A DNA stretch of 11,954 bases from a virus, in UHGV virus genome UHGV-2190786. One strand, written 5' to 3'. The position numbers and the translations under genes are program-made. The notes below the pieces were generated by a model that saw only the letters and a program-made list of their open reading frames with translations, did no database searches and had not been told where the DNA came from. How positions within the stretch are numbered: position 1 is the stretch's first letter; each line of letters opens with the position of its first letter. Below, piece after piece: positions 1,833 through 8,987 of this stretch.

Positions 1833-2311
1833 TGGAAATAAAGCTCATCGATAATCCGGTGAAGCTTGCAGAATTCCTCAACAACCCGGCAAACACGGGA
1901 AATATCGTAGACAGTGGAGACAAATACTACATCAAGCCTGATGCGGTATACCTCGGCATCTACGAAGGACTGATGCTGGTCGGAGTGCATGAAGTGCGTA
2001 ACTTCTGGCATAGCGTTGTTGAATGCCATGCGGTGTACGACCCCGGATTCCGTGGCGAATATGCACTGCAAGGGCATCGATTATTCTGCAAATGGCTTCT
2101 CGAAAACTCACCATTCCTTAACAGCATCACTATGGTTCCTGACACCACGAAATACGGACGGGCAATTATCCGTTTGCTTGGCGCTACCCGTGTTGGTCAC
2201 CTTGATGATGCTTATACCAGCAATGGAAAGCCTGTGGGCATCACGATTTATCAGTTACCGCGCTCAAAATACGAGGAGCTAACGAATGTTAATTTTCCAG
2301 ATTGCCAATAA
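1832..2311 (+). CDS. gp14-like protein (by position in the P22 late operon), about 159 aa
   Basis: The ORF starts at an ATG that overlaps the tail needle stop (TGATG at 1830-1834); the track begins one codon earlier at a GTG (1829). Size and position match P22 gene 14. Product is assigned by synteny only. Confidence 0.65.
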   Translation: MEIKLIDNPVKLAEFLNNPANTGNIVDSGDKYYIKPDAVYLGIYEGLMLVGVHEVRNFWHSVVECHAVYDPGFRGEYALQGHRLFCKWLLENSPFLNSITMVPDTTKYGRAIIRLLGATRVGHLDDAYTSNGKPVGITIYQLPRSKYEELTNVNFPDCQ

Positions 2312-2939
2312 GCACCTCAGCAAAGCTGTTTACTGCAAAGGTGGCAGTGATGGCGGTTCAAAGGCACAGGCACGCGCAACTGAAAAGGGCATCGAATTGC
2401 AGCGTGAAATGTGGCAGACGAACATGCAAAACCTTGCACCGTTCACGCCACTCGCTCAGCAGTACGTATCACAGTTGCAAAATCTTTCCTCTCTTCAGGG
2501 GCAAGGTCAGGCGCTTAACCAGTATTACAACTCCCAGCAGTACAAAGACCTTGCAGGTCAGGCGCGTTACCAGAGTCTGGCAGCAGCAGAGGCAACGGGT
2601 GGATTAGGCTCTACAGCAACAGGAAACCAGTTAGCAGCAATCGCACCTACACTCGGTCAAAACTGGCTGTCAGGTCAGATGAACAACTACAACAATCTGG
2701 CAAATATCGGCCTTGGCGCTCTTACAGGTCAGGCAAACGCCGGGCAGAACTATGCCAACAACGTCAGCCAATTGTATCAACAGCAGGCGGCAGCATCTGC
2801 GGCTAATGCGAATAAACCATCAGGATTTCAGAGCGCCCTGGGTGGAGCGGCAGCAGGTGCAGCTGCAGGTACTGCAATCATGCCTGGTTGGGGTACAGCA
2901 ATTGGTGCTGGCGTCGGTCTTCTTGGTTCACTTTTTTAA
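2286..2939 (+). CDS. Ejection (DNA-injection) protein, gp7-like, 217 aa
   Basis: ATG at 2286 is preceded by GAGGAG about 7 nt upstream and overlaps the end of the previous gene by 26 nt. The protein is Gln/Asn/Gly/Ala-rich low complexity with a hydrophobic glycine-zipper C-terminus (GGAAAGAAAGTAIMPGWGTAIGAGVGLLGSLF). Position and size match P22 gene 7. Confidence 0.75.
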   Translation: MLIFQIANKHLSKAVYCKGGSDGGSKAQARATEKGIELQREMWQTNMQNLAPFTPLAQQYVSQLQNLSSLQGQGQALNQYYNSQQYKDLAGQARYQSLAAAEATGGLGSTATGNQLAAIAPTLGQNWLSGQMNNYNNLANIGLGALTGQANAGQNYANNVSQLYQQQAAASAANANKPSGFQSALGGAAAGAAAGTAIMPGWGTAIGAGVGLLGSLF

Positions 2940-2951
2940 TGGAGGTGTCTC

Positions 2952-4364
2952 TTGGCTACATGGCAACAGGCTGGTAATTCAGGCGCGCTTCTTGCCGGGT
3001 TAGGCGGCATGAACTCCAACGCTCCAAGAGCAAGTGATGCAGACGCCACGCTTGCATACATTCGACAGAATAACGAGATGGAGCGTTCAGGACGTAATAA
3101 CGTTGGCTTGCAGGCTTTGCAGGGCATTTCATCTGTCATGGATATGTATAAGCAGATGGATCAGCAGAAGCGACAGCAAGAGTTTCAGCAGGCTTATGCT
3201 GATGCATATACATCTGGTGACCGCGATGCAATGCGAAAACTGGCATCACAGTATCCTGAGCAGTTTGACGCCGTAAGAAACGGCATGAAATTTGTCGATG
3301 AAGACCAGCGTTCCACTGTCGGTACACTGGCAGCAAGTGCCAGACTCGCAGCTTCATCTCCAGAAGCCATGATGTCATGGTTGCAGAACAACTCATCTGA
3401 GCTTACTCGTGCCGGAGTAGACCCTCTGGATGTGGCGAAAATGTATCAGCAAAATCCACAAGGTTTCACAGAGTTTGTTGATCACCTTGGGATGGCTGCG
3501 CTTGGTCCGATTGATTACTTCAATGTTCAGGACAAGATGGCTGGTCGGGATATTGAGCGTGGCGAGTTGGCAGAGACAATCCGCAGCAATCAGGCTGGAG
3601 AAGTACTTCAGGCGAGAGGGCAAAATCTTTCCTATCAGTCAGCAATGACTGGGCACAACATCGCAGCGCAACGCTTGGCTCTGGATCAGCAAGAGTTCGG
3701 GTTTAAGATGCAGCAAGCGCAGGAAAAGGCTCAGCAGTTGATTAGCGAAGCACCTAAGCTGTCAGTAAACATGGAAAAAGGCATCGAGACGGCTGTAAAC
3801 AATGCTACAGCATCATCAAACTCAGCCAATTCTATGAGTGCGCTTGCTCAACAGTTCAGAGCAGAAAAACCAACGACAGGTTTGTTCGGTAACGCACAGA
3901 ACATGTTCGCAAAACTTACCGGAAGCGATACGACATTGCGTGATTTGCGCATTCGCCAAAATGCCCTTGTTAACAGTCAGGTTCTTAAATTCCTACCTCC
4001 CGGACCAGCAACGGATAAAGACGTTGAGATCGTTCGACAGGGTGCGCCAACTGACATGGATAACCCTGAGACGGTCGCAAGATGGCTTGATGCAATGGCA
4101 AACCTTGAGCGACGAAACGCGCAGTTTAATGAGTTTAAAGCCGAGTGGATGAGCGCGAATGGCAACCCTGGACAATCGCGTAATGGCGGTCAGATATTGG
4201 GGTTGGATGTTAAAAAAGGTGAATCATTGGGGAGTGCCGTTAAGCGGTATATGTCAATGAATACTGACGCAGCGCCAGCACAAGATTCGACACCTTCAGG
4301 TGAACCACGGAATCAGGTTGGATCATATACCTCAAAATCAGGCATTCAATTTACGGTGGAATGA
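2952..4364 (+). CDS. Ejection (DNA-injection) protein, gp20-like, 470 aa
   Basis: A long ORF whose first in-frame start is TTG at 2952, 6 nt after a GGAGG Shine-Dalgarno (2941-2945). The next in-frame ATG is 19 codons downstream. Size (470 aa) and position match P22 gp20 (471 aa). Confidence 0.8.
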
Positions 4365-6208
4365 TGAAAGTAACTGCAAACGGTAAGACATTTACCTTTC
4401 CTGATGGTACGAGCACCGAAGATATTGGCACCGCCATTGATGAGTATTTTGCTGGTCAGGTTGTTCAGCAACAAACAGTTAATCAGGCCAATAATGCACC
4501 AACACGGGAAGAACCATCATTGATGCAACAAGCTGGCGATTGGCTCACTGGTGGTCAAAGTGCAGGGCAAATTGCAGAACAGGCTGGTCGTGGTCTGGTA
4601 AACATACCATTTGACGTATTGCAGGGTGGCGCAAGTCTGATTAATGCAATCAGCCAGGGGCTTGGTGGCCCCAAGGTTTTGGATGATGTTTATCGTCCAG
4701 TAGACAGACCGACAGACCCCTATGCTCAAGCTGGAGAAACAATTGGCGGGTATTTAGTTCCAGGAGTTGGAACGGCAGGAAGCATGGCTATTGGATCACT
4801 GGCAGAGGCCGCAAATCAGAAAGGTGATTTCGCGCAAAATGCAGCCATAAATGCCGGAGTTAACCTTGCCGCTCAGGGTGTTCTTTCCGCAGCAGCAAAG
4901 GGAATAGGGCGTGGAATAACGGCTATAAAAGGCGATATCGCGCCAGAAGTAGCGAAAAAAATTGCCACCTCAGAATCAATGGGGGTGACACCAATGACAT
5001 CTGATGTCATCCCACCGAAAAATGCTTTCACTCGTGGCCTTACTCAGGATGCCGAGGGGGCTTTGCTCGGGACAGGCTCAAAGCGAGCTGAGCAATATGC
5101 AACGCGTAGTAAGCTGGTAAGTAATTATTTTGACCGTTTTGGTGAGTACAACCCTGATGATGTGGTGAAATCTCTGACCACCACGTTAAGGGGGCGGAAG
5201 GATGCTGCTGGCGCTGTTATCAATGACGTCACCAATAAAATGGGTAATGCCGCAGTTGATACCACAAACACTATGAATGCTCTGAATACAGCGATCGCAA
5301 GACAGGAACGGCTTGGGACGTCTGCCAATCAAAGCCTGCTTACATCCTTGCGTAACCTACGTGAAGAATTAGCAAACCCTGCAACTGATTTGGATGTTAC
5401 GTTTGATCTCTTGCGTCAGCACAGAACAGCATTTAGATCTAATGTTCAGGGAGATGCTATGGTCTTCCCCAACCAGGCAAAAGCAGCTACCAATATGGTA
5501 GAGAATGCAATGTCAAAAGACCTTCGTAACGCAGTTGCAAAAAACCTCGGTGCGTCAGACGCAGCAAAATACCTTAAAGCAAATTCCGATTATGCAAACG
5601 TTTATAATAAGGTGCTTAATAAAAACATTGCTAACAAGCTCAACAAGGCAAGCAGTGAAGCCAGTCCTGAACTTATAAATACTGTTGTATTAAGCAGAAA
5701 ACCATCTGACGTGAAACGAATCTGGAGCGCATTGGATGATAAAGGGAAAGATGCTATGCGTGCAGCTTACGTCAGCAAAATAGCGGAAAAGGCCGGTGAC
5801 TCTCCAGCCAAGTTCATCACTGAAGTTAATAAGCTGAAATCTCAGTCAGGTGGTGAAATTTACAACACTATTTTTTCTGGAAAGCACATGAAAGAGCTTG
5901 ATTCTCTTCATGAAGTTCTACAGAAAACAGCAAGGTCAGACACCGCAAATGTAGTAACTCAGACGGGGCAATCGCAAGCCAACAGGATAAGGACGATTGG
6001 CGCAACTGCGACTCTTGGCGTATCAATGGGGCTTGAGGCTGGTTTCGGTGCAATCATGCGCTTGTATGAGTCCAAAGCAGCAAGGAATGCTCTCTTACGT
6101 TTGGCAAACACCAAAGCAGGAACACCTGCCTATGAAAGAGCGCTAAATAATGCTGCAAATGCGATACGCCCTATACTTTCAAGCCAAATTACAGCAGAAC
6201 AGCAATAA
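4361..6208 (+). CDS. Ejection (DNA-injection) protein, gp16-like, about 615 aa
   Basis: Tandem ATGs at 4361 and 4364 overlap the gp20 stop (TGA 4362-4364). The N-terminus [15 protein letters not shown] matches what I recall of P22 gp16, which argues for the second ATG (4364) as the true start. Size matches P22 gp16 (609 aa). Confidence 0.85.
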
Positions 6209-6222
6209 AAGATAAGATATAA

Positions 6223-6708
6223 CTACCTGATATTATTGCTACTGTTGCATGTTACCGTGTTTCCAAATCCTGAATTGCAGTTTGTATATGTGTCAACGCG
6301 TGTTGGGTAAGGTTGAGTTATAACAGGCTGGCGCGCTTTTTGCTCGATCGCTTGCATTGTGTTTACAGCCTGATAATTCAATAAAGCCTGCTGGAATGCT
6401 TGGCTTTGTGCTATTTGTTGGGCTTGTTCTTGGCTTTGTAATTGAACATAAAGATTATGAAGCTCAAGTCTTGCTTGTGCGTCACTTATCTTGCCTTCAT
6501 CGACACCTTGCCCGAGCATCTTTGCAGCAAGGACATACAGCTTAGGTGTTGGTGCTGATGCCATGCGTGAGTCGTTCTTCACACTGGCATCAAGGCAATT
6601 AGCCATATCGCTAAGCTTTTGATAGCGTTGTTCGCAACTTGCTTGATAGTCACTTACTTTTGCGCATCCAACCAGCAGAATCGGGATAATTAACAGTGAT
6701 TTTTTCAT
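6223..6708 (-). CDS. Predicted lipoprotein of unknown function (moron in the sieA slot), about 161 aa
   Basis: The start is taken at the ATG at 6708-6706, which has a strong Shine-Dalgarno (AAGGAGAG) about 8 nt upstream on the minus strand. The N-terminus MKKSLLIIPILLVGC is a type II signal peptide with lipobox LVGC; the +2 residue is Ala. It is followed by a Gln-rich predicted coiled-coil and a Cys-containing C-terminus. The track's longer ORF (to 6744) adds 12 residues with no ribosome-binding site. Confidence 0.7.
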   Translation of the reverse strand: MKKSLLIIPILLVGCAKVSDYQASCEQRYQKLSDMANCLDASVKNDSRMASAPTPKLYVLAAKMLGQGVDEGKISDAQARLELHNLYVQLQSQEQAQQIAQSQAFQQALLNYQAVNTMQAIEQKARQPVITQPYPTRVDTYTNCNSGFGNTVTCNSSNNIR

Positions 6709-6778
6709 ATGGTTAACTCTCCTTAGTTTTTCACAGGATATCATGAAGGCAATGCCATTTTAGCCGGAAACTAGATTT

Positions 6779-7045
6779 CTATGTTTCCTTTTTATTATTG
6801 CTATACATGGTCTTAAGCGTTTCAAAAACCATTTTCTTAACCATATCAGATTGTTGTTCTGCCATACGCTCTGCATCGTCAATGTAAACTGGTGCAGAGC
6901 TTTGTTTAGCCAATGATTCTTCAATCGCTGCAATTATCTCTGAGTTCAGCGACCTGTTATTCATCTTCGCACGCTGCTTAATTTTCGCGTGGAGTTCATG
7001 CGAAAGTCTCAAGTGAAACTGCGCCTCGTCGTATTTGCTGTACAT
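6779..7045 (-). CDS. mnt: Mnt-like ribbon-helix-helix repressor (Arc/MetJ superfamily), about 88 aa
   Basis: The stretch RAKMNNRSLNSEIIAAIEESLAK...DDAERMAEQQSDMVKKMVFETLKTMY aligns with my recollection of P22 Mnt (RAEANGRSMNSELLQIVQDALSK...NDAERLADEQSELVKKMVFDTLKDLY). The start at ATG 7045-7043 (MYSKYDEAQFHL...) matches the P22 Mnt N-terminus; the upstream ATG at 7078 would give 99 aa and cannot be excluded. Confidence 0.85.
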   Translation of the reverse strand: MYSKYDEAQFHLRLSHELHAKIKQRAKMNNRSLNSEIIAAIEESLAKQSSAPVYIDDAERMAEQQSDMVKKMVFETLKTMYSNNKKET

Positions 7046-7118
7046 CCTTGATGCCTCACCAGTTGGGTGGAATGGCATCGTAACCTACTGGATAAATACT
7101 CAATAGTACCATTTCGGT

Positions 7119-7141
7119 ATGCAATCACATCATGGTTGCAT
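7119..7141. promoter_or_regulatory. Candidate operator: inverted repeat ATGCAA-N11-TTGCAT in the mnt/tailspike divergent intergenic region
   Basis: A perfect 6-bp inverted repeat separated by 11 bp sits in the short gap between the mnt start and the tailspike start. Calling it an Mnt operator is inference; it does not resemble the P22 O_mnt sequence as I recall it. Confidence 0.25.
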
Positions 7142-7166
7142 CATATCATTCGTCTGGAGTAATGAA

Positions 7167-8987
7167 ATGTCAGATATCACCGCAAATGTTGTGGTAAGCA
7201 TGCCTTCGCAACTCTTCACTATGGCTCGTTCTTTTAAAGCCGTAGCTAATGGAAAGATTTATATCGGAAAAATTGACACTGATCCGGTAAATACTGAAAA
7301 CCAGATCCAGGTTTATGTGGAGAACGAAGACGGCTCTCATGTTCCTGTATCGCAACCAATCATCATTAACGCTGCTGGTTACCCGGTATATAACGGACAG
7401 ATTGCCAAGTTCGTAACTGTGCAAGGCCATTCTATGGCTGTTTATGATGCATATGGGGCGCAGCAGTTCTATTTTCCTAATGTGTTGAAGTACGACCCTG
7501 ACCAGGGAATTATCAGGTTAAAAGAAGAAATTGCGAAAGATGATGGAGAGAAATATATCGGAATATGCCCTGACGTTTCTACGCTCAGAACAATTGAGCC
7601 ATCATTCGTCGGGCAAAATATAACTGTTCGTGGATACTACTCTGACACACCCGGGCTTGGGGGAGGAACGTTTATAGCCTTTTCCAGTTCTGAAGCTGAC
7701 GATGGTGTGAATATTTTTGTTACCCCCGGCGGTAAGCGATGGAAGAGAGCAGGAAGCCACATCGATATTCCGGTAGAGAACGGTGGCATGATGACATCAT
7801 GTACGGCTGAGCAAAACAGTGAAGCCTTTGAACGCCTGACTGCATGCCTTCCATATGAAGGAGGTACGCTCAGACTCAATGGATTTTACGATATTAAGTA
7901 TGGCGCTATCGTGCCTCCACGTGTCACGCTGGAGGGGTGCGGTATGGATTCCTGTGGATTAATTAAAACAGGTAACGATATTAAAACCGTTCCGGATCGC
8001 ATGTGGCAGGGTGTACCACACAGCTTCTCCAAAGACTTTATTGTTGCGGTAGATATGGATAGCGATACGTCTGGTAGTCCAAATGGTCCAGTAGGTAATC
8101 AAGTCAGAAGCACCAGAATAATTGGATTGAGCTTAATATGCTCATCCATCACTCCATGCGCATTCGGGATCTATTCCAGTATCAGTTATGACGTCAGGCT
8201 ACAAGATTTATACGTAAAAAACGTAGGTATTGGATATCGTACCAGCGATAGTTGGCTGCAGTCATGGTCAACTATAACAGTTGAGAATGTTAATAAGGGA
8301 TTTTTTGTTGAAAATGGAGGTACATCATTCAATATATCAAATACTTATGTTAAAAATGCGTCATCAATTGCTTATCATTTTGTTAATATAACATACAGTA
8401 CGCTGACATGTACGGCAGCAGATTATATTAATGGCTCTGCTTATGCCTTTTTGGGCTGCACAAGTATAGTTATGAATGGGTGTGGGGCAGAGAATATAAC
8501 TGGTAGTGCTTTTGAGTGCAACCAGTCAAGAGTTACCATTAACTCTTTTAGAGGAGTGAAGTTTTTTGATGCTGGTAATATAGCTTGCATATTTACACAG
8601 TGTGCAATAGTAATGAGCGCTTGTTTTCTCCCTGAATTTGATGGTTCTTTTTCAAGTAAGTATTTTGAGCTTAATGATTCAACGATCAATCTGAACAATA
8701 CCGTTTGCCCGGATGCATCGAGAGTAAAATGGGGCGAGACAGCAGTGTCATGGATAAATTTCTCAAACTATGGCGGAAACTATACAATCTGGGGCGTTAC
8801 TGCTTGGACCGCAACAGGGTTCCTCGTAAATGGAATTGCTCATGTCTATGCGGAATTACCTCCTGATTCCTCTGTCACACAGTTTAGCCAAGGTGCTAGA
8901 TGGGAGCTGATAAGACCCACAGCTGGGAATAACTATAAATGGATTCATACCGGCGGAGGAGTCTGGAGAGCGGCAGGTAGTATATAA
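7167..8987 (+). CDS. Tailspike protein: P22 gp9-like N-terminal head-binding domain fused to a divergent beta-helix receptor-binding domain, 606 aa
   Basis: The start is ATG 7167, preceded by GGAG at 7156-7159. The N-terminus [42 protein letters not shown]...[13 protein letters not shown]...NVLKYDPDQ matches the P22 tailspike head-binding domain as I recall it. The remainder has a repetitive, Cys-rich N-x-S/T pattern typical of a parallel beta-helix and is not P22-like. The track's extension back to 7119 has no ribosome-binding site and no homology. Confidence 0.9.

Follow-up and report, generated by a model that had tools for sequence, protein, structure and literature searches.

An uncharacterised lipoprotein gene stands in the sieA slot of P22-like prophages and may encode an envelope-level exclusion factor

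Introduction

What do P22-like prophages carry at the place where phage P22 keeps sieA, and could the occupant, like SieA, turn away incoming phages? The question is raised by UHGV virus genome UHGV-2190786, of which we analysed a stretch of 11,954 nucleotides (nt; referred to here as the window, whose own coordinates are used throughout). A preliminary description, made from the letters of the window, had reported at 6223-6778 a minus-strand gene for a lipoprotein of about 161 amino acids (aa), lying between ejection gene 16 and the repressor gene mnt, and had suggested superinfection exclusion as its role. The open reading frame (ORF), the lipobox and the neighbouring genes all agree with such a gene; of the reported interval, 6223-6708 is the gene itself, and 6709-6778 is a noncoding spacer of 70 nt that extends up to the mnt stop codon. 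We propose, with a probability that we put at about 0.4, that this is a prophage moron whose product acts as an envelope-level exclusion factor against incoming phages and is a functional alternative to SieA. In any case, the lipoprotein is an uncharacterised, non-homologous addition to the prophage moron envelope proteins already known (SieA, Llp, Cor and Bor).

SieA, encoded in 22 of 66 P22-like phages, is a three-transmembrane (TM) inner-membrane protein without a signal sequence and, among proteins believed to stop short-tailed phages from delivering their DNA, the only one that has been studied (PMC10883804); phage lipoproteins that act as exclusion factors have been reviewed (PMC11436027). 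The ‘ant moron’ or immI region of P22-like phages has been described as variable: it holds mnt along with further genes, of unknown function, that vary from phage to phage (Villafane et al., 2008, PMC2629481; PMC8022706). Those papers neither single out nor characterise the lipoprotein, and our literature searches found no paper on it.

A conserved lipoprotein gene of a catalogued family

The mechanical ORF covers 6223-6744 on the minus strand (173 aa), with an upstream ATG at 6744 and an inner ATG at 6708. We chose the inner ATG because AAGGAG (6719-6724) precedes it by 10 nt and because the RefSeq start agrees: the homologue in E. coli O26:H11 str. 11368 (WP_000749290.1, 98% identical) has a matching 486-nt coding sequence (CDS) whose ATG corresponds to 6708. 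ATG 6708 is thus the start used for the product, which begins MKKSLLIIPILLVGCAK... (also given as MKKSLLIIPILLVGCAKVSDYQASCEQ...), and the ORF list and translation give the gene as 6223-6708 on the minus strand (161 aa plus stop). Against relatives with a synonymous divergence (dS) of 0.16-0.62, its Nei-Gojobori ratio of nonsynonymous to synonymous divergence (dN/dS) is 0.03-0.10; for the copy in Salmonella phage VSe13, dN is 0.031 and dS 0.60. The gene is real and under strong purifying selection. One sampled prophage (L175) has a copy cut to 74 aa, as might be seen if the ORF were a non-functional chance frame or a decaying remnant; that idea, to which we would give hardly any weight, is nevertheless already refuted by the conservation data, namely these dN/dS values, a lipobox and four cysteines kept across genera, and 216 clusters of relatives at E<0.001, besides a head domain that is predicted with confidence.

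The sole meaningful family match is phrog_6067 (‘unknown function’), whose profile aligns over the full length of the protein (residues 1-161 on positions 1-161, E=3.9e-109). The gene had been put forward as something undescribed; this holds for its function only, the family being already catalogued, with members annotated ‘hypothetical protein’ in hundreds of genomes and in three to five phage records. Searches with the lipoprotein returned nothing above noise in Pfam, no accepted match in NCBIfam, none of the families among the PADLOC-DB anti-phage defence models (0 matches), no annotated PHROG and nothing meaningful among PDB sequences, and its predicted model had no fold match to any solved or viral predicted structure. 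The profile and structure search proposed in the preliminary description therefore yielded no match to SieA, to a named lipoprotein family or to a solved fold. By Pfam, NCBIfam and PHROG profiles there was likewise no match to Lambda Bor/Iss, TraT, spanins, Lpp or other named lipoprotein families, and a role as o-spanin or in lysis was rejected on position, length and the lack of a PHROG match. Weak matches to DUF2802 and GspK were rejected as far below cut-off and confined to the Gln-rich helix; for the GspK pseudopilin the score over that helix was 18.5 bits against a cut-off of 130 bits (NF037980). The public record of the Cronobacter dublinensis homologue (P0023) bears the name ‘general secretion pathway protein GspK’; the same helix explains this mis-annotation.

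The gene and the parts of its product are as follows.

6223-6708, minus strand: lipoprotein gene, phrog_6067 family (ORF, phrog_6067 match, dN/dS, RefSeq CDS)
6664-6708, minus strand: signal peptide, aa 1-14, and codon of the lipobox Cys15 (6664-6666), read from the sequence and from an alignment of relatives
6484-6663, minus strand: predicted N-terminal helical head domain, aa 16-75, with invariant Cys25 and Cys38 (alignments; AlphaFold)
6334-6483, minus strand: predicted long Gln-rich helix, aa 76-125 (AlphaFold; composition)
6232-6294, minus strand: predicted C-terminal beta-hairpin, aa 139-159, with the pair Cys144/Cys154 and the motif TNCxxxGNxVxC (alignments; model, with a predicted local distance difference test score, pLDDT, of 50-67)

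The lipoprotein signal, MKKSLLIIPILLVGC, ends in the lipobox L-V-G-C (LLVGC) with Cys15, followed by Ala at +2 and Lys at +3. The lipobox, for which the pattern [LVI][ASTVI][GAS]C was the criterion, does not vary among 28 close homologues, and 87 of 90 aligned wider relatives have one. In Enterobacterales, lipoproteins that do not have Asp at +2 are sorted to the outer membrane by the Lol system. The earlier reading of Ala rather than Asp at this position was correct, and none of the 87 lipobox-bearing relatives has Asp there either, so that no Lol-avoidance signal is present. Judged by its sequence, the product is probably a lipoprotein with outer-membrane-type sorting signals, and its predicted location is the outer membrane.

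Apart from the cleavable signal peptide the protein has no hydrophobic stretch; the remainder consists, by sequence and predicted model, of polar helices. The AlphaFold model used here (the second of two, built on a 90-sequence alignment) has a mean pLDDT of 77, which reaches about 90 over residues 21-100 and in the compact helical head (about residues 18-70), and confidence in the long helix drops past about residue 110. The Gln-rich segment and the several cysteines noted before are both borne out: residues 84-127 hold 14 Gln per 44 residues, a segment longer than in distant relatives of 125-140 aa, which are without most of it, and the mature part has four Cys (25, 38, 144 and 154). Exactly four mature Cys occur in 76 of the 87 relatives, a pattern that would fit two periplasmic disulfides. 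Across genera we also saw two alternative C-terminal alleles (...CNSSNNIR vs ...CQSY) on N-terminal parts that are otherwise alike, which suggests recombination within the gene.

The slot and its leader are shared with sieA

To the right and left of the gene, the slot is made up of the following features.

6709-6746, minus strand: leader common to P22 sieA and other cargo genes, TCATGATATCCTGTGAAAAACTAAGGAGAGTTAACCAT (alignment), containing the AAGGAG and an extended -10-like motif, TGnTATCCT (6735-6743)
6747-6778, minus strand: remainder of the mnt-lipoprotein spacer, with a 6-bp hairpin over the mnt stop codon that has no U-tract and is not terminator-like
4361-6208, plus strand: gene 16-type ejection protein gene, convergent with the lipoprotein gene across a 14-nt gap; left boundary of the slot
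6779-7045, minus strand: mnt-like repressor gene, 88 aa (Pfam Arc and Repressor_Mnt); upstream same-strand neighbour and probable operon partner

That this is the slot of sieA proved to be truer than had been claimed from position, since several prophages have, in front of the lipoprotein, the same promoter and leader as P22 sieA. In prophages L030, L058, L080 and L093, about 150 nt upstream of the lipoprotein are near-identical to the sequence upstream of P22 sieA, up to the AAGGAG; this stretch includes the sieA promoter annotated in BK000583, and the lipoprotein ORF then follows in place of sieA. Loci of the window type, which number 41 among the 94 with the lipoprotein, retain no more of the leader than its last ~38 nt, with the end of mnt directly upstream.

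We surveyed the slot in 80 further P22-like prophages, found via the tailspike head-binding domain. The sample is biased to E. coli-type prophages and includes redundant isolates, and the counts are therefore rough: directly after gene 16, the lipoprotein stands in 17 of the 80 loci and SieA (types A/B) in 10, about 20 are empty, and the remaining slots hold at least eight other unrelated small proteins (phrog_2651, 5962, 8100, 7294, 19844, 10450, 21338 and one 140-aa protein). The lipoprotein is thus the commonest occupant of the slot in the sampled E. coli-type prophages, and its presence varies among otherwise syntenic phages across these loci, as is the mark of a moron. Lipoprotein and SieA co-occur in none of 116 lipoprotein-bearing and 11 SieA-bearing loci.

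Most slot cargos sit behind a common leader, ...TGGTATCCTGCnnAAAACTAAGGAGGTTGGTGTG, and the leader TGGTATCCTGCnnAAAACTAAGGAG(GTTGGTGTG) precedes at least 10 unrelated cargo ORFs (window 6709-6746; loci L097-L176; P22, L095, 4832-4870), the common stretch taking in the GTG start codon for most of them. A signal peptide or TM segment is present in 9 of 10 cargo types and a Pfam domain in none; SieA is the sole type with a characterised function. The leader looks like a recombination ‘adaptor’ for the exchange of cargo. In the searchable papers we found neither a leader common to many cargos nor the exact sieA-to-lipoprotein swap.

A lipoprotein of 95-98% identity stands beside gp16 proteins of at least four unrelated types and beside many kinds of tailspike and needle. 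We looked for co-variation of the lipoprotein with the type of gp16, gp20, needle or tailspike and saw none; the gene is an independent module, and a simple model in which it forms a ‘matched pair’ with a neighbouring virion gene was rejected for want of such co-variation. In one prophage type (L036, 5460-5891, minus strand) an unrelated predicted lipoprotein of 143 aa (...MMLSGCATIVGD...) adjoins the slot.

The lipoprotein is widespread in Enterobacterales prophages

Homologues with 95-98% amino-acid identity are found in phages Gally, vB_EcoP-720R6 and VSe13, and homologues with 54% identity in Proteus phage Brookers and Salmonella phage MS2 LVA. Among 5426 complete E. coli genomes the gene occurs in 204 (~4%), always on the chromosome and including enterohaemorrhagic E. 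coli (EHEC) O26:H11; in the same set, type-A sieA occurs in 35 genomes, so that the lipoprotein is about 6 times commoner (204 vs 35), and the P22-type tailspike head-binding domain in 1111. P22-like prophages of at least seven Enterobacterales genera besides E. coli carry phrog_6067, with homologues in Citrobacter, Serratia, Klebsiella aerogenes, Cronobacter, Yersinia, Pectobacterium, Morganella, Tatumella and Pantoea. In all of those examined (Morganella, Yersinia, Tatumella and E. coli) the lipoprotein gene belongs to a P22-like prophage and faces the 3' end of gene 16 in convergent orientation; in Pantoea it has been kept beside a tailspike gene in a degraded prophage remnant.

A profile search of 1.84 billion representatives gave the 216 clusters mentioned above. 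Many of these are lipoproteins of 125-140 aa that have the same head domain and C-terminal Cys hairpin, and none of the distant clusters has a Pfam or NCBIfam name. The distant relatives are mostly on short metagenomic contigs, and taxonomy and context were sampled for three sites: a Pectobacterium chromosome, between dsbB and minCDE; a housekeeping contig with uvrC and bio genes; and an integrase-bearing element. Near the Pectobacterium lipoprotein paralogue, and also near the end of the Morganella P22-like prophage, we noted a small gene like DNA polymerase III theta (HolE/Hot-like; L009/L010 6439-6696, L004 1295-1597, L005 1772-1996). Its presence at both kinds of site suggests that what looks chromosomal in Pectobacterium could be what is left of an old prophage.

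Expression from the prophage is likely

Two further features bear on transcription.

7046-7166, no strand: divergent mnt/tailspike control region, corresponding to P22 Pmnt/Pant, with a promoter-like site on the minus strand at 7173-7145
6114-6131, minus strand: weak terminator-like hairpin within the 3' end of gene 16, ~90 nt beyond the stop codon of the lipoprotein gene; tentative, since the fold is no better than that of shuffled sequence

The lipoprotein gene is co-oriented with mnt and runs against the late operon. Both mnt and sieA are expressed from the P22 prophage (PMC10883804). Expression of the lipoprotein in the lysogen is likely on positional evidence, because the gene lies 70 nt downstream of mnt and no terminator was found in the spacer between them, whose hairpin is without a U-tract. 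Prophage expression had been argued from a strong Shine-Dalgarno sequence; it is plausible, and the better argument lies in the sieA leader and in the place of the gene as the last of mnt operons. Four independent arrangements of such operons occur, those of the other prophages being tight: that of the window; mnt, a 104-aa gene and the lipoprotein (with overlapping stop and start); mnt, an 81-aa TM gene and the lipoprotein; and mnt, Rap1a and the lipoprotein. Within the leader, the invariant TGnTATCCT looks to us like an extended -10 element, at a place where a sigma-70 consensus scan called no promoter, and in the window the lipoprotein may depend on the mnt promoter. The middle gene of these operons is itself variable (L062 5413-5975; L041 2305-2795; L008 5359-5942) and encodes a 104-aa secreted protein, an 81-aa TM protein or, in Tatumella, a Rap1a-family protein of the kind that gives immunity to type VI secretion systems (T6SS); the 104-aa secreted protein is related to the 99-aa cargo phrog_19844.

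Likeness to known envelope proteins is one of place and kind, not of homology

Phage T5 Llp and the Cor proteins of phi80, N15 and HK022 are lipoprotein exclusion factors that act on FhuA, the receptor of long-tailed siphophages (T5, phi80), and the outer-membrane lipoproteins Bor/Iss and TraT confer serum resistance or surface exclusion. P22-like phages use the O-antigen and at least Sf6 also OmpA/OmpC. With P22 SieA (phrog_7745) the lipoprotein has in common the slot between gene 16 and mnt/gene 9, a leftward orientation convergent with gene 16, a near-equal length (164 aa in SieA vs 161 aa), the same leader and Shine-Dalgarno sequence and, in a number of prophages, also the annotated promoter; the presence of one excludes that of the other, and both are envelope proteins. 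As the preliminary description supposed, they are nevertheless different proteins. Homology was rejected, since BLASTP against P22 SieA gave no alignment at E<=100 and the two belong to separate PHROGs; and whereas SieA has three TM segments and no signal sequence, the lipoprotein is predicted to be secreted, with outer-membrane-type sorting and a soluble helical body.

The comparison with Llp and Cor that had been drawn earlier fares less well, there being no homology to either. The Cor profile (phrog_1119) matches the signal peptide only (residues 1-31, E=0.039) and not the mature protein, on which ground homology to Cor was rejected, and Llp gave no sequence or fold match among PDB entries. 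What the lipoprotein has in common with them is to be a small phage lipoprotein with outer-membrane sorting signals and conserved Cys that plausibly alters the envelope offered to phages; unlike them, the phrog_6067 protein is about twice as long and mostly helical. Lambda Bor/Iss and TraT resemble it as predicted outer-membrane lipoproteins of the carrier state borne on mobile elements, a likeness that belongs to a host-benefit model, and differ from it in size and predicted fold, the lipoprotein having no Pfam match.

An exclusion role and its alternatives

We reasoned that, if the lipoprotein is an exclusion factor, its action would run as follows. Leftward transcription, started either at the mnt promoter and reading through or at the short sieA-type leader, would give a transcript with its 5' end either ~7 nt downstream of TGATATCCT or at the mnt promoter. 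Following the sequence rules, the product would be exported by Sec, lipidated at Cys15 and taken by Lol to the outer membrane, where it would sit in the inner leaflet. Its two Cys pairs would form disulfides in the periplasm; in the predicted model a compact helical head lies near the membrane, and a Gln-rich helix of ~50 residues carries the small C-terminal hairpin into the periplasm. Infection might then be blocked at the envelope stage through the occupation or alteration of a conserved host envelope component that phages need, as with Llp and Cor, or, alternatively, through obstruction of the outer-membrane and periplasmic passage of the P22-like ejection-protein conduit (gp7/gp20). A conserved host partner is favoured over a specific phage-protein partner, because the strong conservation of the lipoprotein is independent of the type of the neighbouring ejection proteins. 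A bolder form of this proposal, which we consider speculative and rather unlikely as a whole, is that of a new exclusion factor against short-tailed phages, anchored in the outer membrane, that blocks the assembly or passage of the conduit or masks its docking partner, complements the inner-membrane block by SieA, and is one of at least 10 envelope cargos swapped behind a universal adaptor.

In favour of an exclusion role we count the slot, orientation and size in common with sieA, the common leader and its mostly secreted or membrane-bound cargos, the absence of loci with both lipoprotein and SieA, the place at the end of mnt operons, the conserved lipobox and +2 residue, the purifying selection, the independence from neighbouring virion genes, the retention in the Pantoea remnant and the precedents of Llp and Cor. 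Several observations weigh against it. A slot and leader in common with sieA amount to a shared expression logic, not to a shared function, and no homology found in PADLOC, Pfam, NCBIfam, PDB or fold searches ties phrog_6067 to exclusion. The distant relatives are stand-alone lipoprotein genes in housekeeping contexts (Pectobacterium dsbB-minCDE; uvrC/bio). Proteins locked in a direct arms race with those of phages do not usually show strong purifying selection without diversification. The promoter region annotated for P22 sieA has not been retained in the window, a sigma-70 consensus scan calls no promoter in the mnt-lipoprotein spacer, and the outer-membrane location is predicted solely by the +2 rule.

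The main rival, doubtful in our view and yet deserving of attention, is a lysogenic-conversion lipoprotein whose gene was taken over from a family of chromosomal lipoproteins and which confers a phage-unrelated benefit on the host in the manner of Bor/TraT (serum or stress resistance, envelope integrity, adhesion or interbacterial competition are candidates). Such a benefit would agree with the ordinary chromosomal neighbourhoods of distant relatives that have the same head and C-terminal Cys hairpin, with strong purifying selection and near-identical sequence across very different prophage backbones, with the retention of the gene in the decayed Pantoea prophage remnant and with its frequency in pathogenic E. 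coli such as O26:H11. It fits less well with the lack of similarity to Bor/Iss, TraT or any named envelope family, or with the exclusion function of SieA, the sole occupant of this slot and leader to have been characterised; moreover, the phage-borne subfamily has an extension of the Gln-rich helix by ~30 residues that is absent from the chromosomal relatives, which suggests adaptation to a new role.

The two remaining alternatives turn on enzymes of the envelope and on the lytic cycle. T4 Spackle, which inhibits the gp5 lysozyme, is the closest analogy for a periplasmic immunity-type protein, and such a protein might here protect against an envelope-acting enzyme or toxin, be it a peptidoglycan hydrolase delivered by T6SS or bacteriocin or the lytic transglycosylase domain of gp16. 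The predicted small helical periplasmic domain with predicted disulfides would suit this role, and the Tatumella gene follows a Rap1a-family gene in one mnt operon; that adjacency, however, was seen once, and although some adjoining gp16 proteins have an SLT domain (VSe13, Tatumella), gp16 of the window has neither SLT nor another Pfam domain, and the lipoprotein is indifferent to gp16 type. Spackle, Rap1a, Ivy, MliC/PliC and other immunity folds were absent among the matches listed in the PDB structure searches, and we regard this explanation as improbable. Slightly less probable again is a function in the lytic cycle, either the masking of receptors on lysing cells and debris to spare progeny virions (the second role of Llp) or envelope disruption. 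The gene does lie inside the late region, where the leftward promoter could be active in the lytic phase (though late read-through would not be sense), and phages obtained as free virions (Gally, 720R6, VSe13 and Brookers) still have it; but it is oriented against the late operon and with the lysogeny gene mnt, the lysis cassette is elsewhere, the protein is unlike spanins, and the primary receptor of these phages is the O-antigen, which the tailspike destroys.

A moron in such a slot will not surprise a specialist; what stands out is the exact exchange of sieA for a lipoprotein, the common adaptor and the frequency of the gene in pathogenic E. coli. If the lipoprotein is an exclusion factor, as we propose, it would give the lysogen self-protection at the outer-membrane or periplasmic stage and would matter for host range in phage therapy; if it serves the host, it would be a widespread lysogenic-conversion gene in pathogens. 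On either reading it is a concrete and cheap experimental target. The leader, for its part, offers a simple rule for finding candidate envelope proteins, with at least nine slot families that have no assigned function, and if the bolder form of our proposal is true, the slot would be a compact hot spot of undiscovered anti-phage proteins acting at the envelope.

Neighbouring genes in the window and in related phages

The window is a P22-like (Lederbergvirus) late region that runs from the C-terminus of gp10 through an Sf6-type needle, DUF2824 (gp14), gp7, gp20 and the gp16-position gene to the lipoprotein, the ejection genes of gp7, gp20 and gp16 type occupying 2286-6208 (plus strand). A tailspike gene with a P22-type head-binding domain follows at 7167-8987 (plus strand); Pfam recognises nothing in its receptor-binding part, to which only a few of the sampled loci match. 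After the tailspike come gtrC-like, gtrB and gtrA genes on the minus strand. For comparison, the order in P22 (BK000583) is 16 (+), sieA (-), the sieA promoter, orf59a, mnt, arc, ant, 9 and gtrCBA. The complete E. coli genomes (5426) cover at most 67% of the window, and the best DNA match of the head-binding domain is 95% identical, so that the window does not come from any of them. Rfam recognised no RNA family in the window.

The window has the mnt-like repressor without arc or ant, and mnt adjoins the tailspike gene across the divergent region of ~120 nt (6779-7166 with mnt included). Mnt is consequently left here without an antirepressor gene as its target; it may regulate read-through at the tailspike, or else just the operon to which it belongs.

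The gene at the gtrC position (9032-10912, minus strand) encodes a DUF6056-type membrane protein that is not of the P22 GtrC type, with a guanine-plus-cytosine (GC) content of 0.34-0.36. As called mechanically, the ORF shares 250 nt with gtrB; a start at ATG 10666, overlapping the gtrB stop, is the likely one and gives a protein of 544 aa.

In P22 (L095) an unannotated ORF of ~118 aa (MKKVNIGNVP...) with an HExxH motif occupies 4862-5215 on the opposite strand (plus in the locus), flanked by the sieA promoter and the mnt terminator. It may be the gene called hkcC (PMC2629481). In phage Gally an opposite-strand gene, gp14, follows the lipoprotein at a place similar to that of the P22 HExxH ORF.

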